DNA of 64,000 bases from Treponemataceae bacterium (GCA_963667725.2 CAXXHO010000005.1:640001-704000), one strand, 5' to 3'. Shown: positions 5,427 through 64,000, counted from the stretch's first letter. The notes: generated by a model not told the origin, from the letters alone. Numbers and translations: made by a program.

Positions 5427-5447
5427 GATCGCAGCCCCCCATAGCGC

Positions 5448-5478: not shown

Positions 5479-5541
5479 GTGCTATTCTCACACCGATTGG
5501 AGGGCTTGATCAAGAGCGCGGCGACAAGGACGAAGGCCCGC

Positions 5542-8813: not shown

Positions 8814-9638
8814 TTATTTTATCGAAAAACCCAAAGAAATATAGTAGAGCCTTCCCTTCTCGGTTTCGCAGAAGGTGGCGAGAAGACCGGTAAGATCGCT
8901 CGCGATCTCGACGCCCAGCGATTCCGCTGTCTCGAAGATGCCGTTGAGGTCGCTCTTCCTGAGCGAGAAAGGATCGTAGGTGGCCACGAGGGTGCAGAGG
9001 TTTTTTGATTTCGCGAAAAAAGAAACAGGGGGACTGAGGTCGAAATCGAAAGCCTTCGCCCATTCCTCGCGCACGCCGACGCCGATGGACACGGGAAGCC
9101 TGTCCACGGCGGGGTCGACAAGGCTCTCGCGGGGGACGTTGAGGGCGACGCAGGTGTATTGGGGATGAGTCATCCACTGATCCAGGATGCGGAGGGCGGC
9201 GCGGCTTCGCTGTCCGCCTTCGCCAAAAAGAATGAGGCGATAAAGATTGAAGACTTCCTCCGCCCCGCGCAGCTCCACCCGGCCCATGCGCGAGGGGATG
9301 GCGGTGAGCATCTCCCTTTGCTGGCGCACCCGGGCGAGTTTGAGCCGGAGCGACTCCAGCTCGGCCTCGAGAGCGGTCTCGTGCGCGGCGTAGAGTTCGG
9401 CCTGTTCCTCGATGCCGGCGTTGGCCTTGTCTATGATGGCCGGTATGGGCAGCTCGAGTCCGCGGCAAATCCTCGTCAGGAGCATGTCCACGGCGTTGGC
9501 CGCCGAATATTTGCGGTAATTGTTCGGCGCCACCCCTTCGGGAGCGATGATGCCGCGACTCACGTAGTGCCTCAGGGTTTCGCCGGTGACGCCGGTCAGT
9601 CTGCAGAACTCCCTGGCGCCAAAGCTGGTCGTGTCCAT
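8814..9638 (-). CDS. MerR-family transcriptional regulator
   Basis: AREFCRLTGVTGETLRHYVSRGII...NNYRKY HTH followed by a coiled coil. Confidence 0.85.
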   Translation of the reverse strand: MDTTSFGAREFCRLTGVTGETLRHYVSRGIIAPEGVAPNNYRKYSAANAVDMLLTRICRGLELPIPAIIDKANAGIEEQAELYAAHETALEAELESLRLKLARVRQQREMLTAIPSRMGRVELRGAEEVFNLYRLILFGEGGQRSRAALRILDQWMTHPQYTCVALNVPRESLVDPAVDRLPVSIGVGVREEWAKAFDFDLSPPVSFFAKSKNLCTLVATYDPFSLRKSDLNGIFETAESLGVEIASDLTGLLATFCETEKGRLYYISLGFSIK

Positions 9639-9807
9639 TCCGTCCGGTTTTCCTTTCCTCGAAAAGACTAAAGGTCGCGCCGAGTATAACCTTTCGCCCG
9701 GAAAAGCTTCAATCAGGCCGTTGGGCGGGAGGGCCGGCGCCGCGGCCTTCAGAGCCAGCCCCCCCCGCCCGCTTGCGCCAAAAGCGCATCGCCGTTATGC
9801 TTTTCCC

Positions 9808-51100: not shown

Positions 51101-52557
51101 GCGAAGCGGTCGAAATCGGGGTCGAGCCCCACATCGTCGTAGCGGTACAGCACTACCCTGTCGAACTCGGCGAGGGGGATATCAGTACCCGAAAGAACGT
51201 CGCGAGGGGAAAAAGCGAAGGACTTGTCCCTGCCCGAAAGATCCATGCGGTACACGCGGCCGTAGAAGAGATTCGTTTCGGCGACAACTTGGGCTTTGGA
51301 CAAGAGTTCCTTTAGCGTTTTGAAAGAAGAAATCTCATAACGGCCAGCGTATTTTACAGGGCCGCTCACTTGGGCCTGACCCACGAGAAGCTCGGTGACC
51401 TTGCCGAAATAGACGAAGTCGCCGTCGGAGGCGAGCTTCGAGGAGAAGGAAGCGTTGGATAGATCGCCCGAGACAAGGCTTTTGCCCGATTCGGAGAAGC
51501 GAAGCAGCGTCACGCCGCCGGAGCGAGCCGAAGGCAGGGCGCCGCCCGCGAGCCCGAGCGCGGTCGCGATGCTGGTGTCGCCTTTCAGTTCATAGATGCC
51601 CGGTCGCTTGAGTTCGCCGGCCAAGGCCGCCACGGGACCGATGCCCGGCACGAAGAGGGAATCGCCCTCGCGAATGCGCAAGTCTATGGGAAGGCCTTTC
51701 ATAAGGCTGTCGTAAAAATCAATTTCCAGTTTTTCAGCCACACCCTTAGTCTGCCTCGTGAGCACGACCTTGCGCAGCGAACCCGTCTTCTTGATCCCGC
51801 CCGCCCTGGAGAGGACGGTGAGAATCGTATCGGCCCCGGAAGCGAGGACCGTGCCGGGATTCCCCGCATAGCCCGAAACGAAGACCGGGAACTGCCGCAA
51901 GGTGGCGAGGGTGAGGCTCATTTCGAGCTTCTTGTAGCGTCGATCGAGCATGCTCTTGATGACGGTCCGCACCGTGGCGAGATCCTGGCCCCATACCGCG
52001 ATCTGTCCGGCGGGAGGAAGGAAGATATATCCATTGCGGTCAACCGAGAGCGTATAGGAGGCTGAAATTTCCTTGATATCGACAGGATCGCCCCAGAGGT
52101 AGAGAACGAGGCTGTCGCCAGGTCCCAGCACATAATCGTCGCCGATGGAAGCGAGCGAGGGCGCTGTGGGCTTTTCGAAGAGCGAATAGCCGAACTGGGA
52201 AAGTTCCTGTGCGGGAGTGCCGAGGCCCGTGGCCATGCCGGCGAACATGGATTCAAGCGGAGAGTTGATGGCGTTAATCGGGGCGACAGTAGGAGCGGCG
52301 GTAGCCGACGTCCCCGGGGAAGCGAGGGCATTCACGGTAGGCTGTGCGGGAGCCGTGGTCGGTGCGGTTCCACCCGAAGCGCCCTGAGCGGCCAGCGCCT
52401 GCGCAATCGCCGCTTGGTCCATGGCTTGAGCGCCGGCTGAGAAGGATAAGCTCACCGCAAAAGCGAGCGAGCAGGTCAAGGCAATTGCTTTTCTTCTATT
52501 GATCGGCACTTTCAAACTCCGGATTCGTGGTGTTGCTTGTTCAGTATAATACATCAT
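45133..52557 (-). CDS. Giant polysaccharide export protein (Poly_export plus many SLBB domains; KpsD/Wza-like); true start possibly GTG near 52510
   Basis: DYVLGPGDSL Poly_export motif; repeated VxVxGxVxxPG SLBB modules; C-terminal helix. Confidence 0.85.
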   Translation of the reverse strand: MMYYTEQATPRIRSLKVPINRRKAIALTCSLAFAVSLSFSAGAQAMDQAAIAQALAAQGASGGTAPTTAPAQPTVNALASPGTSATAAPTVAPINAINSPLESMFAGMATGLGTPAQELSQFGYSLFEKPTAPSLASIGDDYVLGPGDSLVLYLWGDPVDIKEISASYTLSVDRNGYIFLPPAGQIAVWGQDLATVRTVIKSMLDRRYKKLEMSLTLATLRQFPVFVSGYAGNPGTVLASGADTILTVLSRAGGIKKTGSLRKVVLTRQTKGVAEKLEIDFYDSLMKGLPIDLRIREGDSLFVPGIGPVAALAGELKRPGIYELKGDTSIATALGLAGGALPSARSGGVTLLRFSESGKSLVSGDLSNASFSSKLASDGDFVYFGKVTELLVGQAQVSGPVKYAGRYEISSFKTLKELLSKAQVVAETNLFYGRVYRMDLSGRDKSFAFSPRDVLSGTDIPLAEFDRVVLYRYDDVGLDPDFDRFADTLVVSGPVKYPGFYLYKEGSTLSGLLSNNALTLDANPFYGEIIRKTASGAEEYFTFSPREILSGAKDSTLARLDKVRFVKRGADATTHDFDKFPDAVSLTGQVSRPEIYALGSGLKLSKILTKDQALLDTNLNYAEITRLKADGKNEYVTFRPSEVLDGSWDFELGSRDVVKLLKVGYAPAKPDFDRFSAAVQVTGPVQFGGLYAWRENMKLSSLLAKAKPSLVINQVYAEIVRPLGGDKFEYLTFSPKEVAAGIFDLSLKARDSVRFYTTVPATPLKQGVEVPAAVPAPAVPAAAEPVAATTAAPVPAPAAVGETTAPSIAAAVSTGMPSELSAESTADLGMFLEVVTVSGAVRYTGPWARTPTLKLSSVITVDQMLEETNLDYAELTRLKDDGSYEYQTFAPKDVLAKKFDLALQAKDSIRLVKKTAFGGALAPANIEKFADLVQLTGQAARPELFALLPGMKLSKILTKDRVLLDTNLNYAEITRLKADGKNEYLTFRPSEVLDGSWDFDLGSRDVVKLLKVGYAPAKPDFDRFSSAVQVIGPVQFGGLYAWKSGMKLSALLSLAQPAQETNKYYAEVVRPKGGGRYEYLTFAPREVADASFDLELQARDVVKLYTTAPAATAKLAAELPTETTTPATPVAGSTAPVSVAEVISEASPSDLGRFLEVVTISGTIRYIGPYARTPSLKLSSVITADQMLEETNLDYAELTRLKADGSSEYQTFAPREVLEGKYDLALQAKDSIRLVKKTIFGGTLGAVDIEKFADVVQLTGQAARPELFALLPGMKLSKILTKDQVLLDTNLNYAEITRLKADGKNEYVTFRPSEVLDGSWDFDLSARDMVKLLKVGYGPAKPDFDRFFAAVQVTGPVQFGGLYAWREDMKLSSLLAKSKPSLVINQVYAEIVRPLGGDKFEYLTFSPKEVAGGIFDLTLMARDSVRLYTTAPVSATKLGAETMGPDPAILTLPTAAPAEAASTEAVSTETTPVGPASPAVPVQSPGSPPAPASTVIAPAEASSVSPSDLGRFLEVVTVSGAVRYSGPWARTPTLKLSSVITADQMLEETNLDYAELTRLKADGSSEYATFAPREVLEGKFDLALRARDSIRLVKKTTFGGTLAAANVEKFADVVQLTGQVTKPELFALRPSMKLSTLITKDQMLLDTNLNYAEILRLRADGKNEYLTFRPGEVLSGAWDFEVGPRDQIKLVKVNYRPETPDFDRYPEAVLITGPTQFSGIFAWKRGMKLSAIQTMVKPLLIMNQVYAEIVRPLRGGKKQTVTFAPREVGSGIFDIELQPKDMIQYYSTLSPPVQNQTLGPINNGTQNGQITAISVEGAPPASSPAAPSAVGALSAPNSSDISPDVGFFLEIVNVSGVIRYVGPYARTPTLKLSSVVTSEQILQETNLDYAELTRRKPDGGWEFKSFSPREVLAGKMDMDLRAQDYIRFVNVGYLPEKPDFDHFGNAYAVVGSARRTGLYSTDAPKLLSEIITPEQIVSATYLYFAEIERWIMGGRIEYKTFSPYAVLVGLQDERIFPRDIIRLIPADEKTQTYDFSRNPDTVLIKGTTRYPGRYAWYEGLQLSHILAEDDILIETDTSYAEVRRRGMDSETILSFSPSSIVQGRTDVELQPRDNVIFYPKYSKLPVTASGEVQEPKVIPYYDNMEFSQVLRSVKLKIDLDSLKAVVTRTNGETLNIYLEEYLKRQSASKLVLQPGDAISFKRLLPEENLPIVTVRGAVQAPQSIEFKDGMRLADALQAAGGYDSRAYPKGIILIRRTAAENQKKQVDRIISQLEAVTGAGNALPNSTDTALSSAAAVVANLQIDLAVQRARLGSLKQMYKDGFGRISIDIPHTVEELARSSSNVVLERDDLIFVPTTPTYVLVSGEVSDQNVVAFRDGLTVRQAIAESGWVSNNADLQKTYIMRASGKLDSTEGKGFLFFRPSILKFELYPGDTVVVVAKSSKINVGWGYFKDIIDSGYKIMYTVMSTVSLLGL
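46750..50830 (-). repeat. Four in-frame tandem repeats of about 1 kb inside the SLBB gene (boundaries approximate)
   Basis: Marker CGGC(G/A)TAGTT at 47601, 48675, 49644, 50691; spacings 1074, 969, 1047, all multiples of 3. Confidence 0.85.
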
Positions 52558-52623
52558 TTTTATTTATTTCCTATAGTGACAAACATCGTGGATGTTTTCT
52601 AGAAACGGCAAAACATCAATTTT

Positions 52624-53610
52624 TCAAGCGGTCTGGGGACGCAGATGATCGTGCAGCCTGTTAAACAGGTGGGAACAGGTGCAGGTTTCATAAAAGGACT
52701 CCAGGTAATCCTGCCAGCCATGGGAAGGGAAGGAGAGGCTCGCGTGGATTTTGGAACAGGCGAGGTGACAGCAGGGCGGTCGCGGCGCCCTGCCGGGGGA
52801 GGTTTCGGCAGGGACGTGGCACAAGGCCACCGGGCGCTCGATGAGACGGTACTTCAAGGCAAGGCGGGCGTTTTCGGCCGCGAAACCGGCCCAGGATATT
52901 TTGCCATCATCAATATAATGGTAGATGCCGCCTGAAATCGGCAAGAAAGGCGTATTTTCGCCGGGGAAAAGGCTTAAGGAACCTTTTTCGCGGAGGGCCA
53001 TGCCGAGGAGGGCGTCGGCAAGGTTCCGGACCCAGGTGGGCGAGGCGACTTCGTCGTTGACGATGGCAAGATCGGTACCTGTCAGGGAAGCGCGGATGAG
53101 CCCAAGAAGGAGGTTGGCGAAGGGGCCGAACTCCTCGTCGCCATAGAGCCAGCCTGTGCGCAGGACGAGGGATGAGGGATTGGCGGCCAAGAGGGCACGC
53201 TCACCCTCAAGCTGGTACCGGCCAAGAACGTTGACCGGGCGGCAACTTCTCGATTCGGCGTAGCCGCGAGAGACAAGGTTGCCTGAAAAAACATAGTGCG
53301 TGCCCACTGAAATAAAGCGGACTTTGAGCCGCAAAGCCATGGCCGCCAGAAGGGACGGAAGGACGGCGCTTTGGTAGCGGGGATTATCAGGTTCGCGCTC
53401 GCAGCGATCGGGATCGAAGTCGGCCCCACAATAAATAAGATGGGTGAGGCGCGGGGCCGCTTTGAGCCTTGCCTCCAGGTCATCTAGCGCATGGGCACTG
53501 GGAGCGGCAAGCTCGGGCCCAGTACCGATAACCTCGACACGCAGCTTGCCGAAGGCCAATGAGGCGGCCTGGCCGAGCATCTTGTGTATTCCTACTATAC
53601 AGACTGCCAT
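52624..53610 (-). CDS. RmlD-like (dTDP-4-dehydrorhamnose reductase fold) protein with degenerate catalytic motifs
   Basis: LRTGWLYG, VNDEVASPT, GIYHY, APRP; lacks GxxGxxG and YxxxK. Confidence 0.7.
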   Translation of the reverse strand: MAVCIVGIHKMLGQAASLAFGKLRVEVIGTGPELAAPSAHALDDLEARLKAAPRLTHLIYCGADFDPDRCEREPDNPRYQSAVLPSLLAAMALRLKVRFISVGTHYVFSGNLVSRGYAESRSCRPVNVLGRYQLEGERALLAANPSSLVLRTGWLYGDEEFGPFANLLLGLIRASLTGTDLAIVNDEVASPTWVRNLADALLGMALREKGSLSLFPGENTPFLPISGGIYHYIDDGKISWAGFAAENARLALKYRLIERPVALCHVPAETSPGRAPRPPCCHLACSKIHASLSFPSHGWQDYLESFYETCTCSHLFNRLHDHLRPQTA

Positions 53611-53648
53611 GGTAATTATTTAAATTGTTTGCCGTTGCTTCAGGCGGT

Positions 53649-53687
53649 AAAGTTAAAAATTGGGGTCAGACCCCGATTTTTAACTTT
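53649..53687. repeat. Palindromic cassette-boundary site R1
   Basis: AAAGTTAAAAATT-GGGGTCAGACCCC-GATTTTTAACTTT. Confidence 0.9.
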
Positions 53688-53689
53688 GT

Positions 53690-54802
53690 TCAGCGAGTGA
53701 TGTAGTTCTTCTCTATCCAGGTTCGGTACTCGCCTGAACGGACATGGGAGCACCATGCCTGGTTGTCCAGATACCAGCGGACGGTGGCGCGAAGGCCAGC
53801 GTCGAAGGTGAAATGTTGTTTCCAGCCAAGTTCATTTTTCAATTTGGAACAGTCGATGGCGTAGCGACGGTCGTGGCCGGGGCGATCTTTCACGTAGGTG
53901 ATGAGGGCTTCGAGGGAGGCTGGATTTCGGTTGCTCTCTTCAGCGACGAGGGCAATGAGACGGCGCAGGAGCGTGATGTTCTCCCATTCATTCTCGCCGC
54001 CGATGTTGTAGGTTTCGCCAGCCCGACCACGATTCATGATAGTCCACACCGCTTCATTGTGGTCTTCCACGTAGACCCAGTCGCGGATATTCCTGCCGTC
54101 GCCGTAGACGGGAAGCGCCTTCCCCTCGAGCATGTTGAGGATCATCAAGGGAATCAGCTTTTCCGGGAATTGATACGGTCCGTAATTGTTGGAACAGTTC
54201 GAGACTGTGACCGGGAGGCCGTAGGTGTGGAAGTAGGCTTTCGCCAGATGGTCGCTGGAGGCTTTGGATGCCGAATACGGCGAACGCGGATCGTAGGGTG
54301 TGGATTCTGTGAAATAGCCCGAGTCACCCAGGGAGCCGAATACCTCGTCGGTGCTCACATGATGGAAGAGAACATCGCCGCGGGCGCCGCCTGACGCGGC
54401 ACCTGCGGCACCGACGCCCCAGGCTTTTCGCGCGACATCGAGCAACGTATAGGTACCAAGGACATTCGTTCTGATGAACGCTTCGGGTCCGAGAATCGAG
54501 CGATCGACATGGCTTTCCGCGGCGAAATGAACCACCGTGTCGATGTCATAGTCGACAAAGACCTTCTCGACGAGGCCGCGGTCGGTGATATCGCCCTTGA
54601 CGAAAGCGTAGCGGGCGGCGGCGCTTGTGCCACCGAACCGCGCGTCGATATCGGCAAGACTCTCCGGATTCCCCGCATAGGTGAGCGCGTCCAGGTTGAT
54701 AACGCGTCCGGCGAAGTCAGGCCTGGCGAAAAGCCAGTGGATGAAGTTCGATCCAATGAAGCCCGAACCGCCGGTGACAAGTATTGAAGACAATTTTCTC
54801 AT
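53690..54802 (-). CDS. rmlB: dTDP-glucose 4,6-dehydratase
   Basis: VTGGSGFIGSNF, HFAAESHVDRSI, STDEVFG, YSASK, DRPGHDRRY. Confidence 0.95.
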   Translation of the reverse strand: MRKLSSILVTGGSGFIGSNFIHWLFARPDFAGRVINLDALTYAGNPESLADIDARFGGTSAAARYAFVKGDITDRGLVEKVFVDYDIDTVVHFAAESHVDRSILGPEAFIRTNVLGTYTLLDVARKAWGVGAAGAASGGARGDVLFHHVSTDEVFGSLGDSGYFTESTPYDPRSPYSASKASSDHLAKAYFHTYGLPVTVSNCSNNYGPYQFPEKLIPLMILNMLEGKALPVYGDGRNIRDWVYVEDHNEAVWTIMNRGRAGETYNIGGENEWENITLLRRLIALVAEESNRNPASLEALITYVKDRPGHDRRYAIDCSKLKNELGWKQHFTFDAGLRATVRWYLDNQAWCSHVRSGEYRTWIEKNYITR

Positions 54803-54820
54803 TGGAATTCCCTTTCTTGG

Positions 54821-54857
54821 AAGTTAACAAATGGGGTCAGACCCCATTTGTTAACTT
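54821..54857. repeat. Palindromic site R2 (perfect 18-bp arms)
   Basis: AAGTTAACAAATGGGGTC-A-GACCCCATTTGTTAACTT. Confidence 0.9.
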
Positions 54858-55589
54858 TATACGCTTGGAGATGGCAGCTGGACTGAGACCGAGGTAGCGG
54901 GCGATCTGCGATTGGCTGTAACCATCGCGAAGGGCACTTTCAATTGCTTCGTCGCGTACTGCACGCTCTATACCATCACGCTTACGCGCTAAATTCGCTA
55001 TAAGGAAATGCTGCGGGAGCGATTTGCACATGGCAAGCCTCAAGGAGTCAGGGGCTTCGGCATCAGCAGGCTTGACTCCGGCGACTTCGGCTCGCGGCAA
55101 GAACTTTGTGCTGAAGAATTCTGTAAGTTGGGCGATTTCTTCCTGGCTTAGCGCAGGATTTTTCGTGACCGAACTCGCCCAGGGGTATTCGCCGATCCGC
55201 GATGTCATGCCTTTTTTGATGGGATTACGCTCGATATATTTTATAAGAACGTTAAGGTACTTTTCATCGTGCACAAACCAGGATTTAAAACGGCCTTGCC
55301 AGAGAGAACCGACGCGGTCGTATTTACGATTAAAATATTGCGTATAGTCCTGGTCCAAGCGCTTGAGCGCTGACGAAAGATTCTCAAACCGCGTTTCCAA
55401 CAACAAATGATAATGATTCGGCATAAGGCAGTAGGCAACGACATCGAAATCAAAGGCCGATTTTTGGTTGTCGAGGAGGTCCAGGAATCGCCGACAATCT
55501 GGATCGTCCATAAAGATTAAGCGCTTTTCCACACCTCTGTTTATGACATGGTAGAGGCCGATCCGATTCATTCGCGGCAATCGCGACAT
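54837..55589 (-). CDS. HUH/Y1 transposase, REP-associated tyrosine transposase (RAYT)-like, with C-terminal HTH
   Basis: YHVINRG, AYCLMPNHYHLL (HUH), LWQGRF, YIERNP (catalytic Tyr), YPWAS; GYSQSQIARYLGLSPAAISK HTH; RBS GGAGGTG. Confidence 0.9.
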   Translation of the reverse strand: MSRLPRMNRIGLYHVINRGVEKRLIFMDDPDCRRFLDLLDNQKSAFDFDVVAYCLMPNHYHLLLETRFENLSSALKRLDQDYTQYFNRKYDRVGSLWQGRFKSWFVHDEKYLNVLIKYIERNPIKKGMTSRIGEYPWASSVTKNPALSQEEIAQLTEFFSTKFLPRAEVAGVKPADAEAPDSLRLAMCKSLPQHFLIANLARKRDGIERAVRDEAIESALRDGYSQSQIARYLGLSPAAISKRIKLTNGV

Positions 55590-55660
55590 GGCCAGGCACC
55601 TCCGCGTGCAATATTTATGCGCACGGCAGGCAGCTAAAAGATTCAAAGGCCGGGGCAAAA

Positions 55661-55695
55661 AGTTAAAAATTGGGGTCAGACCCCGATTTTTAACT
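55661..55695. repeat. Palindromic site R3
   Basis: AGTTAAAAATT-GGGGTCAGACCCC-GATTTTTAACT. Confidence 0.9.
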
Positions 55696-56374
55696 CGGCA
55701 GGGGGCTTAGGCAGATCCGCAAACCAGGTATTCCACAGCTGCGTCCGTGGGCTTACGAGCGACCACGCGGTTAGGAAAATGAGCGTGAAATAATTGCCGA
55801 GGCTCCTGTGCCGCGTCCACCAGACCTCGAGATCGCCCTTGTAGGGAGCGATGACGGTATCATGAAAATGGTCGCGGTCGCCCTGGATCTCGTCGAGAAT
55901 GGATTCCTCGTCGCGGAAAACCACGGATCCGATACCCGTGAGACCTGGCGGCACGGCGTCGATGGCGGCGCGCACCTGCGCCGAATACAGCTCGTAATGG
56001 CGCCTCGCCTGGGGGCGGGGACCCACGAAGCTCATCTGGCCCAGGAAAATGTTGGCGAGCTGGGGAAGTTCGTTGATCTTGGTTTTGCGCAGAAAATTGC
56101 CCATGGGGAGGATACGCGGATCATTCTTCTGCGTGAGGACGCCGCCCGGCAGGTTGGGGCTGTTTTTAAGCATGGTGGCGAACTTGAAAACATTGAAGTC
56201 GCGGCCGCCAAAGCCGACGCGGGGCTGGAGATAAAAAATATAGTGTTCGCCAGTGAGCTTCAGGCCGACCATGATGGGCAGCATGAAGGGGAAGAGAATG
56301 AGCATGGCGACAGAGGAAAAAATGATATCGAAGAGGCGTATGAGCATTGGCGCGAATGTAGACACTGAAGGCAT
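55676..56374 (-). CDS. Bacterial sugar transferase (initiating phosphoglycosyl transferase, PglC/WbaP small type)
   Basis: RLFDI, YLQPRVG, KFATM, DPRI, LRKTKINELPQL, MSFVGPRP, PGLTG. Confidence 0.92.
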   Translation of the reverse strand: MPSVSTFAPMLIRLFDIIFSSVAMLILFPFMLPIMVGLKLTGEHYIFYLQPRVGFGGRDFNVFKFATMLKNSPNLPGGVLTQKNDPRILPMGNFLRKTKINELPQLANIFLGQMSFVGPRPQARRHYELYSAQVRAAIDAVPPGLTGIGSVVFRDEESILDEIQGDRDHFHDTVIAPYKGDLEVWWTRHRSLGNYFTLIFLTAWSLVSPRTQLWNTWFADLPKPPAELKIGV

Positions 56375-56384
56375 GGGCCGTCCT

Positions 56385-56425
56385 AAAGGTTGAAATTTGG
56401 GGTCAGACCCCGTTTGTTAACTTTT
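56385..56425. repeat. Palindromic site R4 (mismatched arms)
   Basis: AAAGGTTGAAATTT-GGGGTCAGACCCC-GTTTGTTAACTTTT. Confidence 0.85.
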
Positions 56426-57129
56426 GAAGGTCATCGGCGAGAAGGGCTTGGAGGTAGCGCCAATAATCGTCGGAGAGAGCGGTATCGACAATCGGTCCCA
56501 ATGGGAGGAAGCGACGCATCTCGTTCCGGAAGTCTTCCCGGATCGAAGCATCAGCGCCGATACTCCCGATACGCGCCGTGAGTGAGTCAAAAAATCCTGA
56601 CGTCGTTTTATGGTGATCTAGTATTTTTTGGGCAATAAAATCGGTATTCAACGCGACACCCTGTCGCTCGAGCCAGGCAATATCCCATAGATCGCGGTTT
56701 TTAATTCTATTCGGCCTGAATGCCAGAGCGAGGAATTTATCGGCGAGTATTTCCTCCCGGCTCTGCGCGCGAAGGATGAGCCCCGAAGTTCCCATTTCCA
56801 CACCGTATCGATTGCGAAGCATCATGGGGCGGAATTCGTGGCTAGGGATCGAGCAGATATCGATATGGATACGTTGGGCTTTCAGATCTTTCCGCTCCGG
56901 CCGCGTCCGCACTATCACCTTCCACGTATCGACGTTCCCAGCCTCCCGAACCGTAACAAGCCCTAAGGCAGGTGCCTCCGATGAAGGTAAGCAGGACCAA
57001 CAGGCCAGCGTCGCTCATCAATCGCAGGATATCGTGATGGAGCAACTCCTTTTCGACGACAGGACGAAGCACCGCGAGTTCGGGGCTATTGCGGATCGCT
57101 TCGTCGACGAGCGCGTCAAAGAGGCTCAT
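56403..57129 (-). pseudogene. AbiEii-family nucleotidyltransferase toxin, disrupted (frame change near 56945)
   Basis: N-half VEKELLHHDIL...FIGGTCLRACYGS; C-half in another frame EAGNVDTWK...EILADKFLAL...RDLWDI; the expected SEDLDF segment is absent. Confidence 0.75.
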
Positions 57130-57680
57130 CTTTCATCCTTTTGCGCAACGAGACTCATATCGACAAGATCCATGGGCCTTTTGGCCGAACGCATATCCGC
57201 AAGCGCGAGGGCGATCGAAGCCCGCCAGAGTCGACATTGCCCGTCCCAGCTTAGCTCAGAAGCGAGGCGCGAAGGATCTTTGCCGGTATGGATGAATTCG
57301 ATAGTGCCAAAGCCCTCGCACTCAATTTTTCCGGATCGACCCGAACTCATGACTGTAATCCAGGAAAATGGAATCTGGGATATGAGTCCCGCGTCAGATA
57401 GCACCGTTTCACGACTCAGATAATTGAAACGCTCGGCTCGCAGACGGGCCGCGGCATGGAACAGCACTCTATCCCGCGGGTAATCTACTTTTTCGTAGAT
57501 ATAGAGGTTCCTGCATAGCCGTTTCAGCGATCCCATCCTCGATGCCCTGGAAACGAGGGTCTTGAAGGTATCGTAGGATAACTCGGGCAAAAGAGCGTGG
57601 AGATCGCGCAGGGAGAAAAGGTAGTGCTCGCGGTCAGCAAGCCGCGCGAGTGTCTCAGAAAAGATCCTGACTGGCTGCAT
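57126..57680 (-). CDS. AbiEi-family type IV antitoxin
   Basis: LKRLCRNLY, NYLSRETVLSDAGLISQIP, GTIEFIHT; 4-bp overlap with abiEii. Confidence 0.8.
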   Translation of the reverse strand: MQPVRIFSETLARLADREHYLFSLRDLHALLPELSYDTFKTLVSRASRMGSLKRLCRNLYIYEKVDYPRDRVLFHAAARLRAERFNYLSRETVLSDAGLISQIPFSWITVMSSGRSGKIECEGFGTIEFIHTGKDPSRLASELSWDGQCRLWRASIALALADMRSAKRPMDLVDMSLVAQKDER

Positions 57681-57712
57681 TTCCGCTCCGATCGACTGCT
57701 GATAAGCGGCAA

Positions 57713-57729
57713 GTTACACTAAGTGTAAC
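57713..57729. promoter_or_regulatory. Inverted repeat upstream of abiEi, probable autoregulatory operator
   Basis: GTTACACT-A-AGTGTAAC. Confidence 0.5.
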
Positions 57730-57751
57730 CTAGTGTCGATCAAAATTCAAT

Positions 57752-57791
57752 AAAGTTAAAATTTGGGGTCAGACCCCGTTTGTTAACTTTT
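57752..57791. repeat. Palindromic site R5 (mismatched arms)
   Basis: AAAGTTAAAATTT-GGGGTCAGACCCC-GTTTGTTAACTTTT. Confidence 0.9.
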
Positions 57792-58190
57792 GGGCCAAAG
57801 AATCTTTAAGCCGAAATCCTTGAACCTCTCAAATTCTCCATCTTTACTCACTATCGTCATATTCCTTCGAATACATTGCCAGATCAACATTCTGTCGAAG
57901 GGATCATTGTGCGTGTTCTCGGCCAAGTTCACATAACTGCTCGCTTCCTCGGGAGTCAGGTCGATAAGCTGAAAATCCATCTTCTCCGCAAAAGAAATCA
58001 AGTCTTCAATAGGCAGGCCACCAAGATCCAGTTTCTTGATCCTTGTCTTTATCGCGATTTCCCAAAAAGTGACGGCACTAACAAAGACTTCATTGTGTGG
58101 ATTCTTGAGTTCCGACAGCACTTTTTCCGGCAAGGATTTGGATCGAGTGACCGACCAAAGAAATGCGCGGGTATCCAGCAGGTACTTCAT
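57783..58190 (-). CDS. VapC/PIN-domain toxin
   Basis: YLLDT, SAVTFWEIAIK, HNDPFDRMLIWQ. Confidence 0.9.
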   Translation of the reverse strand: MKYLLDTRAFLWSVTRSKSLPEKVLSELKNPHNEVFVSAVTFWEIAIKTRIKKLDLGGLPIEDLISFAEKMDFQLIDLTPEEASSYVNLAENTHNDPFDRMLIWQCIRRNMTIVSKDGEFERFKDFGLKILWPKS

Positions 58191-58429
58191 TCCAGACCTA
58201 CGAGCTCTTCTTCCGTCATCTTGAAATCAGCAGAAAATCGTACCGTATACTTGCCGTCAAGAATCCCTAGTTTCCTTTCTTTCTTCTCTTCAAGGTCCTC
58301 GAAGGGTACAATCATCGCAACGGGCTTTTTCTTTTTACCATAGAGAATTCCAAACTTCTGGCCTTGCCGTACCTTTTCGAGAACTTCCGAGAATTGAGCC
58401 TTCAGCTCACCGACAGGCAGTGTTTTCAT
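58187..58429 (-). CDS. Phd/YefM-family antitoxin
   Basis: MKTLPVGELKAQFSEVLEKV...KPVAMIVP; 4-bp overlap with the PIN gene. Confidence 0.85.
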   Translation of the reverse strand: MKTLPVGELKAQFSEVLEKVRQGQKFGILYGKKKKPVAMIVPFEDLEEKKERKLGILDGKYTVRFSADFKMTEEELVGLE

Positions 58430-58493
58430 ACCCAAAGCGTACCTATACTATTTTTGTTTGTCAAGTTGACAAGTTTGATTTCGATACATTGTT

Positions 58494-58526
58494 GGACAGG
58501 ATACCAGGACCGCCAGAATGTACAGG
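58494..58526. repeat. Family 2 degenerate half copy C
   Basis: GGACAGGATACCAGGACCGCCAGAATGTACAGG, 8 bp before R6. Confidence 0.65.
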
Positions 58527-58534
58527 AAAGCTAT

Positions 58535-58561
58535 AAAAGTTAAAAATTGGGGTCAGACCCC
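58535..58561. repeat. Site R6 (left arm plus core only)
   Basis: AAAAGTTAAAAATT-GGGGTCAGACCCC then unrelated sequence. Confidence 0.85.
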
Positions 58562-58615
58562 GGTTCTATCGCGGAACCGTTTGACATAGTATCGGTTCTG
58601 CGGTAGACTCGATCT

Positions 58616-59809
58616 ATGAATACACTATACGAAATCCTCGATTCGTTGCGTATTGTTCAGGCGCGGCTGGAAGATGCGCTCAAGACGCCCGCCAGGCCTT
58701 GGCAAGGCGGCGCGGCGCTACGCGGCGGCGCGGCCCTGAAAGACAGATCAATGCTTCTCTATGGTCCGCGCGGGGTCGGTAAAACAACCTTTCTTGTGCG
58801 CGAAGCCAAAGCGAGGGGAGCCGTCTACCTCAGCATGGATCATCCCGCCCTTGCAAACCTATCGGTCTATACTGTCGCGGAAGCGCTGTTTCAGCGAGGA
58901 GTGATGCAGGTCTGCCTGGATGAAATCCACTACGCGACACATTGGAGCGAGGATCTCAAGGCCTTGTACGACGCGTGGCCTGATCGCTCCATCTGGGCTT
59001 CCGGATCGGATTCGCTCCTGTTGTCATCGGGAATAGGGGATCTTTCGCGACGCTACATCGGCATCGCCATGCCATTTCTGTCGTTTCGGGAGTTTCTGGT
59101 TCTCAAAGGATATCCGGATTTCGGAGTCCATGACCCTTTCTCGACGGATACCACATGGGTGTCGAGCGTCATGGCGGCAGGCAACATTCTTAGGCTTTTC
59201 GAAACCTATTTGGTATCAGGTCTACGTCCGCTTTTCATGGAGGGCGAAGACCGCTACGCCACCCGGATATTGCAGGTCGTTCAAAAGACGCTTGAAGCTG
59301 ATATCCCACGTATTGTGCAAACGGTGGCCCAAAATCATTTTAGCCTGATGAACGCGGTGCTCGGATATCTATCACAGACGAATATTCCCGTGGTACAGGT
59401 AAATTCACTCTGCCGCGAGTGGAATGTCGGAAAAGAGAAGCTCTATGCCCTTTTGCAGGCAATGGAGCAAACAGGCTTGATCAGGATTGTACGAAAGCCG
59501 AGCGATCACGCGGCGCGATCGATCGGCGCCAAGCTCTTTCTGGCAGATCCATCCCTGTACCCGGCGCTCAGCGGGAAGGAAGGCAACGCGCGGGAAGCCT
59601 TTGTGGCCTGCGCGTTTTCTTCAGCGAGGCATAGGGTCTACGCCGCTCAGGATGAACAGGAAGGTGATTTCCTCGTGGATGACTCTTTTCTGATTGAGAT
59701 TGGCGGATCGCGAAAACCTCGGAAGAAGGCGAATTTCGTGATTCGCGACGGCGCGGATTATCCCGTACCGGGAGTAATCCCTTTATGGATGATGGGATTC
59801 GGCTGGTAG
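58616..59809 (+). CDS. AAA_14-family ATPase (DUF4143-like C-terminus)
   Basis: GPRGVGKT, LDEIHY, ASGS, DLSRR, KLFLADP, GDF...IEIGG. Confidence 0.85.
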   Translation: MNTLYEILDSLRIVQARLEDALKTPARPWQGGAALRGGAALKDRSMLLYGPRGVGKTTFLVREAKARGAVYLSMDHPALANLSVYTVAEALFQRGVMQVCLDEIHYATHWSEDLKALYDAWPDRSIWASGSDSLLLSSGIGDLSRRYIGIAMPFLSFREFLVLKGYPDFGVHDPFSTDTTWVSSVMAAGNILRLFETYLVSGLRPLFMEGEDRYATRILQVVQKTLEADIPRIVQTVAQNHFSLMNAVLGYLSQTNIPVVQVNSLCREWNVGKEKLYALLQAMEQTGLIRIVRKPSDHAARSIGAKLFLADPSLYPALSGKEGNAREAFVACAFSSARHRVYAAQDEQEGDFLVDDSFLIEIGGSRKPRKKANFVIRDGADYPVPGVIPLWMMGFGW

Positions 59810-59810
59810 C

Positions 59811-59837
59811 AAAAGTTAACAAACGGGGTCAGACCCC
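59811..59837. repeat. Site R7 (left arm plus core only)
   Basis: AAAAGTTAACAAAC-GGGGTCAGACCCC fused directly to the PIN gene 3' end. Confidence 0.85.
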
Positions 59838-60242
59838 AGCGGAAGGATCCATAAGGGAGAGGTCACGGAAATATTCGCGGTAGTAGCCGCGGTCGCGAGC
59901 CAGGAGACGATCGGCATTCAAACGCGCGTGGGCAGCGATTAGAAAATCAGGCAGAACGCGTCGGGACTGGCCGCGGTTTTTCAGGTACGAAGCGTAGATC
60001 GAGCCTGCGAGCGTGGCGCTCTCAAGGGAGGCGGGCAGGAACTCAAGGCCCACATCGCCCAGGAAGGCCGCGAGTTGCTGGTCGGAAGCCAAGGCTGGCC
60101 TTAGTTCGGCGATAACAGATTCGCAGACAACCAGCCTGCCCGAAGCTCGGGCTTCAGCTAACGCAGCTTCCGAATTCGCTGCGTGGCGCGGATCATCGGT
60201 AAGAATATCGAGAAGCACCGATGTGTCGACAGCGGTTGTCAT
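59829..60242 (-). CDS. VapC/PIN-domain toxin
   Basis: AVDTSVLLDIL, VIAEL, PDFLIAAHA, LLARDRGYYR. Confidence 0.88.
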   Translation of the reverse strand: MTTAVDTSVLLDILTDDPRHAANSEAALAEARASGRLVVCESVIAELRPALASDQQLAAFLGDVGLEFLPASLESATLAGSIYASYLKNRGQSRRVLPDFLIAAHARLNADRLLARDRGYYREYFRDLSLMDPSAGV

Positions 60243-60463
60243 CCGCGAACCTCGTCCAAATACGCATCGACATCGGAGATGCCCCCAGGAAGATGCCCTT
60301 TACCCCGCCATGTTCTCAGCGCGTCCTGAGGTTCTTTCTTGGTTCCGATGATTTTACCCTGTACCAGCTCGAATTCGATGATCGTACCAGGACGGATGCC
60401 CAGCTTGGTGCGTATAGCCTTGGGCAGGGTTATCTGGCCTCGTTCGGATACGGTAGTTTTCAT
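60239..60463 (-). CDS. AbrB/MazE/SpoVT-family antitoxin
   Basis: MKTTVSERGQITLPKAIRTKLGIRPG; 4-bp overlap with the PIN gene. Confidence 0.88.
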   Translation of the reverse strand: MKTTVSERGQITLPKAIRTKLGIRPGTIIEFELVQGKIIGTKKEPQDALRTWRGKGHLPGGISDVDAYLDEVRG

Positions 60464-60521
60464 ACTTTTATAGTAAGTATTCATATTTTTTTTGTCAAGG
60501 CTGGTATTGGGCTAGGGCAAA

Positions 60522-60558
60522 AAGTTAACAAACGGGGTCAGACCCCGAATTTTAACTT
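60522..60558. repeat. Palindromic site R8 (mismatched arms)
   Basis: AAGTTAACAAAC-GGGGTCAGACCCC-GAATTTTAACTT. Confidence 0.9.
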
Positions 60559-61747
60559 ACATCTTGGCGTCGAGGAATTTGCCGGTTTCTTTGTGGGCGA
60601 ACTCGGGGATGGTGGCGTTGAAGAGGTCGATAAGCTGGGCGCGGGTCCAATGGCCTTTTTCGCGCATAACGCGTATCTCGGACTCGAAGCGTTTGAGGGC
60701 GGGCGCGTCATAGGCAGGTTCATTTTTGATGACGCCGATGGATTCGAAGCGGTCCAGGTCGAGGCTTTCCTTATCGGTGAAGAATTCCTCAAAGTCCTTT
60801 TCGCCCGTCGTGTCGCTCGCGAAGAAGAAAACGGGCCACTTGCCCTGCGCTTTCAATTCGCCCACGCGGGCGCGAGCTTCATCCTCGCTCGCACACTCCA
60901 CTGGCTCATAGCCCCGATGTTTCAAATATCTTTCCGCGATCTCGGAGAACGTTATGAGATTGGCCTCCGCGTTGAGTTTTGGAAAGAAAAGATCGCGGTT
61001 TTCGCCCAGAAGGGCGGACATCAGACAGAGCTCGCCCGATTCCTTGGGCGTGACAAAGTAGCGCCTGACATCGTTGGGAGCGGAAATGGGCTGTTCTTTC
61101 TCAAGGCGTCTATTGAAACCATAGAGTAGGCTTCCATCGGAGAAGGCCACGTTGGCGAAACGGGCGGTGGAAACGGGCAGCTCGAGGCTCCGGCGCATAA
61201 GAAAATATTCCATAATACGCTTGCTGGCGCCCATCATGTTCACGGGATTAGCCGCCTTGTCTGTCGACACGCAGAAATATTTCCTCGCGCCCGCCGCGGC
61301 GGCCTGCCTCATAGTTTTATCGGTGTTAAACACATTGACGTCGACCATGCGCATCAAGGTATAAGGATCCTTCTCGCTGCGCACATGTTTCAGCGCGGAA
61401 AGATTGAGCACGTAATCGTAACCGGGGCCGTTCTTCATGAAGGCGTCGAAGATGTCGCTGCCCGCGTCGATGGCGAAGGTGGCGAATTCGCCCGAAGAAT
61501 AGCCGATGGACGAGCGCAGGTCGCGCACCAGCTCGACCATGTTGTTCTCGCTGATGTCCACCACATGAAGCAGCTTAGGATCGCGCCTGAAAATCTCGCG
61601 CGTGACCGCCTGCCCAATGGAACCAGCGCCGCCTATAACAAGAAAACGCGAGGCCTTGACGAAGCGCGACAGCTCGACCTCGCGGGAAGCCAGATCGGCA
61701 GCGAAGAGTTCTTCCTTTCTGCCGATGATATCAAGAATGGAATCCAT
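60557..61747 (-). CDS. Nucleotide-sugar (UDP-GlcNAc-type) 4,6-dehydratase, CapD/Polysacc_synt_2 family
   Basis: IGGAGSIG, LSALKHVRSE, VSTDKAANPVNMMGASKR, RFANVAFSDGS. Confidence 0.88.
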   Translation of the reverse strand: MDSILDIIGRKEELFAADLASREVELSRFVKASRFLVIGGAGSIGQAVTREIFRRDPKLLHVVDISENNMVELVRDLRSSIGYSSGEFATFAIDAGSDIFDAFMKNGPGYDYVLNLSALKHVRSEKDPYTLMRMVDVNVFNTDKTMRQAAAAGARKYFCVSTDKAANPVNMMGASKRIMEYFLMRRSLELPVSTARFANVAFSDGSLLYGFNRRLEKEQPISAPNDVRRYFVTPKESGELCLMSALLGENRDLFFPKLNAEANLITFSEIAERYLKHRGYEPVECASEDEARARVGELKAQGKWPVFFFASDTTGEKDFEEFFTDKESLDLDRFESIGVIKNEPAYDAPALKRFESEIRVMREKGHWTRAQLIDLFNATIPEFAHKETGKFLDAKM

Positions 61748-61767
61748 AGCGCACCTTATTGTAAGTA

Positions 61768-63408
61768 GGGATTCCTGAAGAACCCGCTTTTCAATCTTTC
61801 AAGCCGCTCTCAACAGCCCCATTGGTATAAATTTTAATCGTTCTGCTATTTCAATAATCGTATCAATGAGCAACACAAAAAGGGCTTTCGCCTTTCTCCT
61901 TGCCAACACCATGAGGTTCATCACCAAGAATACCATCATGATGGAAGTCTCGCTCGTTTCCTTAAGCTTCGTTCCAATACTATCGAGCGTATAACGTCGT
62001 TTCGCTTCTCCAAACTTGCCCTCTACCGCGATCCTCATGCTCTCATCTTCTCGCTCGATTCTTTTTTGTTCACGTATTCGTTCTTTATTCTTGCCGTTAA
62101 CCTTGAACGGCCTTCCCAGCTTCGGCCCCGATAATCGTATCCCATACTCTTGGCAGTACTGCAGATTCTCCCTCGTCCTATAGATCTTATCGGCGCATAC
62201 CGCTTCTGGATATCTCCCATATCGCCGCTTATAGCTTTCTATTTGCCCTTTCAAATCTTTGCATTCGTTGTAGGAATCCCATGAGAGCCTATAGACTTCC
62301 GCCATTCCATCAACAAGGCTCAACGAGAGCTTCGCTCCAAACTCATACATTCCTCGGGCCTTTCCTCTCGCGATCGGACGCACCCAAGGCTTACTTATGC
62401 TTAAGATCCTTCCTTCTATCGACCAGGTGTCACTGCGGTACAATTCTCTCTGCTGGCGGACCAATTCTCCGATTACCCACAGATCCTGCCGCTGCTTTCT
62501 CGAGAGCGAAGTTATCCCTACTTTGTCCTTGTATTCATTGATCAACCGCAGGTTCCGCTCGACATATTGGATCTGCGTTTTCAACGCTCTCCTTATCGTA
62601 TTCACTCTCGGCTTTCGGTTCCGTATGAAGGTCAGAAACTCTTTTCTCGCCTTCTTCCTATACGTCCTTGGTTTTTCCCAACCCTCCGGCATTTCTTTCT
62701 GGAGCGTATCGATGATACTTTCAGTCTTCCTTCTCGCTTCATCCAGCAAGGTCACATCATGGGGGAATCTCATATCTTCGGGAGCGCAGGTAGCATCAAC
62801 GATCAAGGTCCCTTTATTCTCTTGCCCTTTCTCTTCTCCATCCCCTGCGCCGTTGCCTTTATCTTCATCATCATGGTGTTCATCGTCGGCTTTGCTCTTC
62901 TCGATGATCAATGAATTCACTTCTTTCAGGACGTCAGCAGATAATCGTTTCCTGAAATGCACCATCATGCTCGGATCGAAAGGTATCTCATATTTGTATC
63001 CTTCGTATCCTAAGAAGAACTGTAGATAAGGACTCTCTCGAATATCCTCCACCAGTTCTTCATCTGAAAGATTCTTCTTCTCTTTTATTATGAGAGCGCC
63101 TAACGCGACTCTCACCGGTATCGCCGGCCTTCCATTATTAGCGACGAACAGCTTTGAATATTTCTCTTCGACATCTTTCCAAGGGATCAGGCTTGCCAAG
63201 ATTACCCAACGATTATCCGCTTTCAAGCTGCCGCCGAACACCATGTCGAACTGATCAAACTCAGGCGTATACTTTGGTATTCTGTACATCTTCGCCTTCC
63301 AAGTGCACGACTTTTTCACGCTTTTCTTCAATTTCCGTGCACTTTTCCGGTCCATTATATCATATATTCCTTTAACTGATTTGACTTTATTTCTTTTTCA
63401 GGAGCCCC
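61768..63408 (-). mobile_element. IS5-family insertion sequence, 1641 bp, 6-bp target duplication TAAGTA
   Basis: Terminal IRs GGGATTCCTGAAGAA / GGGGCTCCTGAAAAA (12/15); TAAGTA at 61762-61767 and 63409-63414; lower GC. Confidence 0.88.
61799..63289 (-). CDS. IS5-family DDE transposase
   Basis: LIVDATC, PIARGK, EFGAK, ADKIY, RIAVEGKFGEAKRRY. Confidence 0.92.
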   Translation of the reverse strand: MYRIPKYTPEFDQFDMVFGGSLKADNRWVILASLIPWKDVEEKYSKLFVANNGRPAIPVRVALGALIIKEKKNLSDEELVEDIRESPYLQFFLGYEGYKYEIPFDPSMMVHFRKRLSADVLKEVNSLIIEKSKADDEHHDDEDKGNGAGDGEEKGQENKGTLIVDATCAPEDMRFPHDVTLLDEARRKTESIIDTLQKEMPEGWEKPRTYRKKARKEFLTFIRNRKPRVNTIRRALKTQIQYVERNLRLINEYKDKVGITSLSRKQRQDLWVIGELVRQQRELYRSDTWSIEGRILSISKPWVRPIARGKARGMYEFGAKLSLSLVDGMAEVYRLSWDSYNECKDLKGQIESYKRRYGRYPEAVCADKIYRTRENLQYCQEYGIRLSGPKLGRPFKVNGKNKERIREQKRIEREDESMRIAVEGKFGEAKRRYTLDSIGTKLKETSETSIMMVFLVMNLMVLARRKAKALFVLLIDTIIEIAERLKFIPMGLLRAA

Positions 63409-63433
63409 TAAGTATTTTCGGCAAAAAAAGTTA

Positions 63434-63560
63434 GACAGGATAACAGGATCTATCACGATTAACAAAAAAATCTTTCTGGTAAAGAGAAGAATCTCTCTTT
63501 CTTTTCTTTCTTTACCCAAAACTCTTCCCTGTCAGTCTTGCCCGTCCCGTTATCCTGTCC
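63434..63560. repeat. Family 2 full copy D (long imperfect hairpin)
   Basis: GACAGGATAACAGGAT...GGTAAAGAGAAGAA...TCTTTACCC...CCCGTTATCCTGTCC; homologous to 36711-36827. Confidence 0.8.
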
Positions 63561-63585
63561 AAGTTAAAAATCGGGGTCAGACCCC
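63561..63585. repeat. Site R9 (left arm plus core only)
   Basis: AAGTTAAAAATC-GGGGTCAGACCCC. Confidence 0.85.
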
Positions 63586-63644
63586 ATATGGTGCAAATTG
63601 TAAATACAATTGACAATATACACCAGGCTACCTATACTTATACT

Positions 63645-64000
63645 ATGATCCCACGAATCCTGGCTGGAAAAATCGTTCAATGGAGCGGCGAGTACCCGGT
63701 TGTCACTGTCACGGGGCCTCGCCAATCGGGAAAGTCGACGCTCTGCAAGGCACTGTTTCCGGACAAACCCTATGTCTCGCTGGAGGAAAGTTCCCTGCGA
63801 CTCCAGGCAATCGAAGATCCGCGCGGCTTTCTGGCGCGATATCCGGACGGAGCCATACTGGACGAAATCCAACGGGTGCCCGAACTATCGTCTTATATTC
63901 AGACTATTGTGGACAGCCGCGACAGGCCGGGGATGTTCATCCTGACGGGGAGCCAGCAGTTCGAGCTTATGGCTGGTGTCTCGCAATCGCTGGCCGGACG
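63645..64000 (+). CDS. AAA_14-family ATPase, N-terminal part (runs off window end)
   Basis: Manual translation MIPRILAGKIVQWSGEYPVVTVTGPRQSGKST...ILDEIQRVPEL...FILTGSQQ...SQSLAGR. Confidence 0.88.
   Translation, partial: MIPRILAGKIVQWSGEYPVVTVTGPRQSGKSTLCKALFPDKPYVSLEESSLRLQAIEDPRGFLARYPDGAILDEIQRVPELSSYIQTIVDSRDRPGMFILTGSQQFELMAGVSQSLAG

Follow-up and report, generated by a model that had tools for sequence, protein, structure and literature searches.

The DNA analysed here (the window) comprises 64,000 nucleotides, positions 640001–704000 of contig C5 in the 4.22-Mb assembly of Treponemataceae bacterium, called G000 below. Its final part, from position 53649 onwards, contains surface-glycan genes, toxin-antitoxin (TA) modules, ATPase genes and the gene of a Y1/HUH transposase, and almost every junction between these genes is occupied by a copy of one short palindrome. 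The palindromes form a repeat family that is linked to the Y1 gene and clustered in G000; between relatives, accessory modules turn over at the palindromic sites, around a fixed backbone of glycan genes. Pfam, NCBIfam and PADLOC bear out the gene assigned to each interval in an original prediction made from the sequence alone. The sole correction concerns the AbiEii toxin gene, which is broken into a 95-residue amino-terminal and a 171-residue carboxy-terminal open reading frame (ORF), about 57 residues short of the intact 292-residue copy found in a second array on contig C4. The TA and ATPase modules have promoter-like sites of their own.

Exact matches to GGGGTCWGACCCC number 10 in the window, the expectation from 100 shuffles being 0.00. 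Nine of them are located in the array, with the central A on the plus strand, and are exact copies of the core GGGGTCAGACCCC; they start at 53662, 54833, 55672, 56399, 57765, 58549, 59825, 60534 and 63573, where the original prediction had placed them. A pattern search also agrees with its statement that the first 53 kb of the window contain no armed copy. The tenth exact core, at 16776–16788, is armless, lies within a coding region and may be due to chance or be a relic. The complete unit is a near-palindrome of about 39 bp, consisting of an AAGTTAA box, a variable AT-rich spacer of 5–6 nucleotides, the 13-bp core, a second spacer and a TTAACTT box. Both arms are present in six of the nine sites of the window, the other three (58549, 59825 and 63573) consisting of the core and left arm alone. 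Sites whose two arms complement each other form strong folds in single-stranded DNA (ssDNA), with energies of −15 to −18 kcal/mol and z-scores of −5 to −10; in two full sites with non-complementary inner arms, and in the half sites, folding is confined to the core. Core-to-core distances are 1171, 839, 727, 1366, 784, 1276, 709 and 3039 bp, the last being reduced to about 1390 bp when an insertion sequence (IS) of about 1.65 kb is subtracted.

The sites are co-oriented, in 12 of 12 cases in the C5 array and in 8 of 8 in the C4 array, and only about 17 nucleotides separate a site from the next start codon. On the gene strand, the core provides the TGA stop codon of four genes of the window (those for Y1, the sugar transferase, AbiEii and the second VapC) and also that of AbiH in the related strain L131. 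Because ORFs terminate at or in the sites, unrelated proteins have common, site-encoded tails ending in GV. These carboxy-termini are encoded at 54837–54858, 55676–55696, 56403–56424 and 59829–59837 of the window and at 4250–4267 of L131, and three of the five proteins (Y1, sugar transferase, AbiEii, VapC and AbiH) have a longer tail in common.

The Y1 protein matches the Pfam family Y1_Tnp (1e-12), and its sole match in the PDB is the E. coli TnpA-REP protein (4ER8, E 0.001). It has more than 5000 relatives, which one source names RayT. In an alignment of 15 sequences, with identities down to 43%, H59-Y60-H61 and Y118 are invariant in all 15, and a carboxy-terminal block is also conserved. 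This block corresponds to a putative helix-turn-helix (HTH) domain, with weak matches to HTH_38, Sigma70_r4_2 and HTH_24 at residues 237–268, all below the Pfam cut-offs. The Y1 gene is bracketed by sites in five arrays: those on C5 and C4 of G000 and those of L131, G020 and L054; the C4 copy, 87% identical in amino-acid sequence, likewise lies between two sites. Orthologues down to 54% identity terminate in core-encoded GV, GVRP or GVGP, the ORFs of close orthologues ending inside the core. In G187, a genome from another family, Y1 homologues of 36–40% identity are flanked by a related core, GGGGACAGACCCC, which has 60 copies in that genome.

The Y1 clade is patchily distributed: counting G000, it was found in 9 genomes among the 301 of the order and in 9 among the 401 sampled from the phylum, and it was not found in two genomes of the same genus, each 92% complete. 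More distant Y1 homologues occur across the phylum (9 of 401 genomes); some have a single GGGGWSAS motif on each side, and none has the 13-bp palindrome next to it. As the core begins with GGGGTCAG, matching GGGGWSAS, the Y1 gene and palindrome are, judged by their sequences, an enzyme-repeat pairing of the known, little-studied TIRtron/TIRYT kind. The linkage, the co-variation of core and enzyme clade and what is known of E. coli TnpA-REP suggest that Y1 cuts the sites.

The assembly contains 29 exact cores and about 31 credible sites (33 rows of the pattern search, two with two mismatches and one arm-like match being discounted). The array on C5 has 12 sites in 12.7 kb (693662–706337), continuing 2.3 kb beyond the end of the window, where it adds 3 sites, and the diverged second array on C4 (22830–29640) has 8. 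The others are found at 66–85 kb (5 sites) and at 5689 (1) on C4, at 752–756 kb on C5 (2), on C6 (2) and on C3 (1), some of them in ordinary operons, for instance between ABC transporter and peptidase genes on C6 and C4. With 20 of the approximately 31 sites in two homologous arrays, the family is strongly clustered rather than dispersed in G000. Over its first 35 kb, C4 is syntenic with C5 669–703 kb but diverged from it (65–83% identity), and other parts of C4 match C6 and C2 at 92–99%. The C4 synteny, together with the assembly's contamination of 6.26%, suggests a bin mixing two related populations, or large diverged duplications; the C4 array was handled as an independent array whichever its origin.

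Of 41 genomes searched for the armed site pattern, 3 gave matches, G000 being one of them. Single matches of a loose pattern in unrelated phyla, among the matches listed, are mostly at the chance level (about 140 by our own estimate) and were disregarded. The original prediction had named dispersal in the manner of repetitive extragenic palindromes (REPs) as an outcome contrary to it; such dispersal is seen in Rectinema subterraneum, with 92 exact cores, and not in G000, where the sites cluster. The R. subterraneum cores lie on many contigs and in either orientation, and close inverted pairs are frequent among them. Given this 92-copy dispersal of the same core, the sites are REP-like transposase repeats doubling as module junctions. 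R. subterraneum also has an array of its own, at about 32–42 kb of contig 1, with about 11 junction sites including two close pairs. It adjoins a glycosyltransferase/Wzy/flippase locus and contains DUF4143 ATPases, an HTH gene, AbiEii, an ISL3 element and uncharacterised genes.

About seven arrays were compared: those on C5 and C4 of G000, that of L131 (a metagenome contig with 95.45% identity to the window across 11,565 bp) and those of G020 (loci L011 and L012), G156 (L031 and L166), L054, L164 and G005 (L013). Matches between the arms of different sites were judged by eye rather than by numerical comparison. The order dehydratase, sugar transferase, rmlB is constant in all arrays, the transferase being missing in C4, and a dehydratase/transferase pair free of sites is found on C6. 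The glycan genes are thus a fixed operon, and not the shuffled cassettes envisaged in the original prediction.

Accessory modules occupy slots in this backbone. The slot between rmlB and the transferase (slot A) contains Y1 in C5, L131 and G020 (a contig of G156 shows rmlB-Y1), a PIN pair plus Y1 in L054, and Y1 with the transferase itself missing in C4; in L164 it is empty, with one site. Between the transferase and the dehydratase (slot B), there is no module in L164 and G005, AbiE in G020 and L054, AbiE and abrB-vapC in C4, and AbiE, phd-vapC, ATPase 1 and abrB-vapC in C5 and L131. Upstream of the dehydratase (slot C), L131 has AbiH followed by an M78-peptidase/HTH pair, C5 has an IS5 element and ATPase 2 followed by the same M78/HTH pair, and G005 has other genes. 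Three genomes differ in the content of one slot, each having a different one.

The breakpoints of gain, loss and replacement fall at the sites, as had been predicted, for accessory modules only. For AbiE, the VapC pairs, AbiH, the PDC-S01 ATPases and the Y1 gene, the unit that appears or disappears is one module with one site. Wherever sites exist, the shorter arrangement retains exactly one intact site, whose left arm fits that of the left neighbour, and whose right arm that of the right neighbour, in other arrays. One intact site likewise remains in C4 where it has neither the transferase module nor phd-vapC plus ATPase 1, which C5 contains. The site between Y1 and AbiE in C4 combines the Y1-side left arm with the AbiE-side right arm, which are on separate sites in L131. 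Where AbiH in L131 is replaced by ATPase 2 in G000 (95.4% identical, 11.5 kb), the core of site 704822 is the point from which the two sequences are again homologous, at 98.4%. Between C5 and C4, identity is 95.5% for the abrB-vapC module and 78% for the adjoining dehydratase, and the core is kept in 13 of 13 positions while adjoining genes differ by 12–22% between genomes. The restoration of a single site, the hybrid arms, the sharp step in identity and the invariant core argue that recombination takes place at the sites, and not merely near them. That all differences are deletions from one maximal ancestor was considered and rejected: it fits C4, G020, L054 and L164, and fails for the module order of G005 and the AbiH/ATPase 2 replacement.

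The coordinates of the sites, genes and elements of the array are collected below.

Table. Palindromic sites, genes and mobile elements in the array and its flank (window coordinates).
Feature	Position	Strand	Remark
rmlD-like reductase, array flank	52624..53610	-	missing between export gene and rmlB in G020
Full palindromic site, rmlD / rmlB junction	53649..53687	.	DNA hairpin −15.3 kcal/mol, z −6.7
rmlB, dTDP-glucose 4,6-dehydratase, backbone gene	53690..54802	-	TIGR01181 469.8 bits
Full site, perfect palindrome, rmlB / Y1 junction	54820..54858	.	gives Y1 TGA stop; hairpin −17.6 kcal/mol, z −9.7
Y1/HUH transposase, 250 aa, RAYT/TIRYT type, carboxy-terminal HTH	54837..55589	-	final residues site-encoded
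Full site, Y1 / sugar transferase junction	55659..55696	.	gives transferase ORF stop
Small polyprenyl-phosphate sugar transferase (Bac_transf), backbone gene	55676..56374	-	missing here in C4 array
Full site, hybrid (non-complementary) inner arms, transferase / AbiE junction	56386..56424	.	core-only fold −5.4 kcal/mol, z −0.9
AbiEii toxin gene, broken, with ORFs of 171 and 95 aa	56403..57129	-	
AbiEi antitoxin/regulator, looks intact	57126..57680	-	PADLOC AbiEi 186.6 bits
Full site, hybrid inner arms, AbiE / phd-vapC junction	57752..57790	.	
phd-vapC (PIN) TA module, own promoter-like site	57783..58435	-	not in C4 array
Half site (left arm + core)	58536..58561	.	followed by promoter-like TTGACA-17-TAGACT and ATPase 1
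AAA_14 ATPase 1 (PADLOC candidate defence family PDC-S01)	58616..59809	+	inverted relative to array; not in C4 array
Half site (left arm + core), ATPase 1 and vapC converging on it	59812..59837	.	right arm retained at C4 counterpart
abrB-vapC (AbrB(MazE)/PIN) module	59829..60484	-	95.5% identical to C4 copy; neighbours 78–83%
Full site, abrB-vapC / dehydratase junction	60521..60559	.	dehydratase stop in outer edge of right arm
Polysacc_synt_2 (PglF/FnlA-like) sugar dehydratase, backbone gene	60557..61747	-	
IS5-type insertion sequence (DDE transposase ORF 61799–63355)	61764..63415, ends approximate	-	missing from L131
MITE-like element (MITE, a miniature transposable element with inverted repeats), inverted ends, second repeat family	63431..63559	.	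abuts half site
Half site (left arm + core)	63560..63585	.	upstream of promoter-like TTGACA-17-TATACT and ATPase 2
AAA_14/DUF4143 ATPase 2 (PDC-S01)	63588..64000, continues to C5 704808	+	317 bits over whole gene; AbiH in its place in L131

Other mobile sequences are found in and around the arrays. A cargo-free site of about 30 bp, made up of the core and right arm, lies between AbiEi and AbiEii in C4 and G156 (L031), and not in G020 or L054. IS110 elements target REP sequences, and an IS110-family element (DEDD_Tnp_IS110 plus Transposase_20, C4:27493–28905) is inserted within the 13-bp core of a full site, leaving the left part of the core before it and the remainder, with the right arm, after it. 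The MITE-like repeats are about 140 bp long, with inverted ends, and their 14-base end motif occurs 27 times in G000. In a tandem ATPase island (C5 740–757 kb), they lie between almost all of the DUF4143 ATPase genes, and copies in contig C49 of G005 lie at 5380–5530, 6740–6890 and 9510–9650 of locus L013. The half site was considered as a part of this repeat, and this was rejected: only 4 of about 16 copies are followed by arm and core, making the two separate elements with common junctions. Tandem runs of 4–6 AAA_14/DUF4143 ATPase genes (PDC-S01) are located at C5 745258–753389 and C4 67854–75122, the latter interleaved with PRiA4_ORF3-domain genes, and a site or half site lies no more than about 100 bp from about 8 of the 20 AAA_14 matches in G000. 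A 4.5-kb segment (C5 706324–710793) encoding an NTP transferase, a DegT-like protein, an epimerase and a GDP-mannose dehydratase is missing from L131; this G000-only segment begins at a site that is degenerate (706337), and is accompanied by a 3′ piece of a DegT gene, duplicated at 705919–706317.

The explanation we favour, at somewhat better than even confidence, is that the sites are a repeat family and also recombination junctions, whatever the catalyst. The palindromes would be the cognate repeats of the array-encoded Y1/HUH transposase, in a TIRtron-type pairing, with Y1 binding the core hairpin on ssDNA and the small palindrome being copied or moved. The sites would have spread into almost all intergenic gaps of a variable island interrupting an ancestral glycan operon of the order dehydratase, sugar transferase, rmlB, rmlD. 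As direct repeats, they would then serve as junctions for the loss, exchange and addition of accessory modules. Loss may occur by recombination between two sites, and gain by site-to-site exchange or by import from a related array through homologous recombination in common neighbouring genes. Sites with hybrid arms fit a junction whose left and right halves would come from two different sites.

Several observations weigh against this explanation. The Y1 protein scores 70.8 bits against REP_Tyr_transpos, the NCBIfam equivalog for REP-associated tyrosine transposases (RAYTs), below the cut-off of 80. For all its cores, R. subterraneum has a closest Y1 homologue of only 31% identity, and in G005, a genome 94% complete, there are 17 cores on 10 contigs and Y1 was not found. 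Slot A of G005 contains an AbrB-PIN pair with no recognisable site, and its glycan-backbone gaps (contig C49) are filled by the MITE-like repeat where G000 has 39-bp sites. Outside the arrays, the polarity of the sites relative to genes is mixed. Because the sites fill nearly the whole of the short gaps, any gene-sized insertion or deletion will break at a site. Deletion between direct repeats requires no dedicated enzyme, and the differences in presence and absence, except those of G005 and the AbiH/ATPase 2 swap, are explicable as simple deletion of this kind. C4 may belong to a second, related organism instead of being a paralogous locus. Contig joints seen in sequencing runs are C4-type or L131-type variants or lie in repeats, examples being 54845>60570, with 13 letters between, and 55695>58535, where one side has just 27 letters. 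Joints hinting at other orders (59809>63467 and 61760>55658) have low depth and only 90% likeness and were not counted.

Four other explanations can be weighed on the same evidence. It is possible, if on the unlikely side, that the array is a dedicated integron-like system, as the original prediction proposed, in which ssDNA circles of a gene plus one hairpin would be excised and integrated at resident hairpins, stockpiling and reshuffling TA, defence and glycan genes. Y1/HUH, as the cassette recombinase, would read the folded ssDNA core and join the left and right halves of two sites, a role we regard as conceivable rather than probable. The uniform orientation of the sites, ORF stops abutting or falling inside them with the next start close by, and TA and ATPase modules provided with their own promoter-like sites are all as expected of cassettes. 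So are the insertions and deletions of one module plus one site, the slot with three contents, the hybrid arms at some sites, the cargo of AbiE, AbiH, VapC and PDC-S01, of the type found in integrons and defence islands, and the Y1 gene inside five of the arrays. What was predicted of co-oriented sites, single-gene or TA modules, a RAYT-like Y1 and turnover at the sites is supported. The proposed shuffling of glycan genes is not, their order being constant and a site-free pair existing; in addition, the core is dispersed in both orientations in R. subterraneum, arrays persist without Y1, solo sites move without cargo, and the literature searched yielded no paper on such an activity. Much the same solo movement, seen in the insertion between AbiEi and AbiEii, agrees with passive colonisation, in which selfish REP- or MITE-like insertions would accumulate in permissive gaps, perhaps tolerated as RNA hairpins at gene ends, with no part in module turnover. 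The island would then vary through IS activity, through homologous recombination in the genes on either side and through TA modules inserting illegitimately. The dispersal of the repeat in R. subterraneum and G005, the MITE-filled gaps and site-less TA slot of G005, the sites in ordinary operons and the IS110 and IS5 elements that also struck the island are in line with this. Exactly one intact site at each junction of the shorter arrays, with arms matching both neighbours, is not, nor are the fall in identity from 95.5% to 78% at a site, the invariance of the core beside genes differing by 12–22% and the hybrid arms, and we consider passive colonisation alone improbable.

The sites could also be bidirectional intrinsic terminators, or operators of an HTH regulator, with no role at the DNA level. 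A terminator scan picks the core with a T-rich arm, on both strands, at most sites, and a dimeric HTH protein might recognise the symmetric outer boxes; the scan total of 18 is, however, close to the shuffle mean of 13.5, and the linkage to Y1 and the turnover at the sites would be left unexplained. Moreover, efficient termination would silence rmlB and the transferase, which are promoterless and start about 17 nucleotides downstream of sites, making this explanation very improbable. A classical integron array, or a cluster of attC sites lacking an integron-integrase (CALIN), served by an IntI encoded elsewhere in the genome, has some basis in the three IntI genes found in the assembly above the TIGR02249 cut-off (447–462 bits), at C7:37069–37989 (+), C1:34408–35331 (−) and C5:550880–551806 (−), with classical attC sites of 107–124 bp beside them. 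However, the profile search of the assembly found no IntI within about 142 kb of the array, and an Rfam scan of 52000–64000 gave no match. attC sites have the form R″-L″...L′-R′ (RYYYAAC...GTTRRRY) and are about 55–140 bp long. The 39-bp site has the opposite box order (GTTRA... ...TYAAC) and is shorter than any attC known to us. The genome's IntI and attC sites being unrelated to the 39-bp site, we reject this explanation as next to impossible, and the exclusion of intI and attC that the original prediction had asked for holds for the array. This spirochaete does hold true integrons alongside its palindrome arrays.

The pairing of a TIRYT enzyme with its repeat is known already; what is new here is the comparative evidence that modules are gained, lost and replaced at the sites, including between strains 95% identical, which are separated by the swap of AbiH for an ATPase. 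TIRtron repeats thereby mark the exact junctions at which anti-phage and TA modules turn over inside a surface-glycan operon. If Y1 is not the catalyst, the array shows how the small palindromes of a transposase can turn an operon into a modular defence island. The full, hybrid and half sites, together with the two enzyme copies, provide substrates for a first biochemistry of TIRYTs. We found no report of gene modules delimited by Y1 or TIRYT repeats in the literature searched, in which subscription journals are thinly covered.

Among known systems, the closest are the TIRtrons, RAYT-like genes flanked by inverted repeats with GGGGWSAS in place of GTAG REPs, the enzymes being called TIRYTs (Di Nocera, De Gregorio & Rocco 2013, PMC3733652). 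According to the accessible text of that paper, some TIRYT repeats are self-complementary, some overlap the 3′ end of the TIRYT gene, some are moderately abundant in dimers or clusters, and action on its repeats has not been demonstrated for any TIRYT. TIRYTs have been equated with TnpA-Y1 subclass 2.1, which has a carboxy-terminal HTH, in the part of Quentin et al. 2018 (PMC6006769) that deals with them. The system described here resembles TIRtrons in its RAYT-like Y1 enzyme, longer than classical RAYTs and with a carboxy-terminal HTH; in its flanking repeats with GGGGWSAS, sites 54833 and 55672 bracketing Y1; and in a self-complementary repeat that overlaps the 3′ end of the Y1 gene and is moderately abundant and clustered. 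It differs in that the repeat is a 39-bp palindrome, with direct copies at almost every gene junction of the island, and that the repeats delimit accessory modules differing between relatives; the accessible text of PMC3733652 describes neither arrays nor cargo.

With REPtrons (RAYT/TnpA-REP plus REP, BIME or REPIN) it has in common a Y1/HUH gene flanked by its own extragenic palindromes at gene 3′ ends, a repeat that is dispersed in some genomes and persists where the enzyme is missing, and an IS110-family element inside a palindrome. In contrast, the aligned sites show neither a GTAG nor a CGTC tag, the copies number only about 31, with two thirds in two arrays (high copy number and dispersal are seen in R. 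subterraneum), the array copies share one orientation instead of forming inverted pairs, and the enzyme has an extra HTH domain. IS200/IS605 elements (IS608, ISDra2) likewise use Y1/HUH chemistry on ssDNA hairpins, and the short conserved box beside the hairpin could correspond to their cleavage or target sequence. Here, however, identical palindromes are found on both sides in place of distinct left and right ends, tnpB was not found in the array, the Y1 gene has two copies rather than many, and host and accessory genes lie between the sites.

The likeness to integrons lies in co-oriented, hairpin-forming sites abutting ORF stops, in single-gene or TA modules, in a cargo of TA and defence genes and in module content that varies at the sites between strains, here for accessory modules only. 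Unlike in integrons, IntI and attI are not adjacent, the candidate enzyme is an HUH Y1 protein that is itself a module, the 39-bp site has the reversed box order, and fixed-order housekeeping glycan genes lie between sites. If Y1 does catalyse the exchanges, the array would amount to an integron-like system based on HUH chemistry, alongside the true integrons of the same genome, and to an HUH counterpart to the tyrosine recombinase and folded attC sites of integrons.

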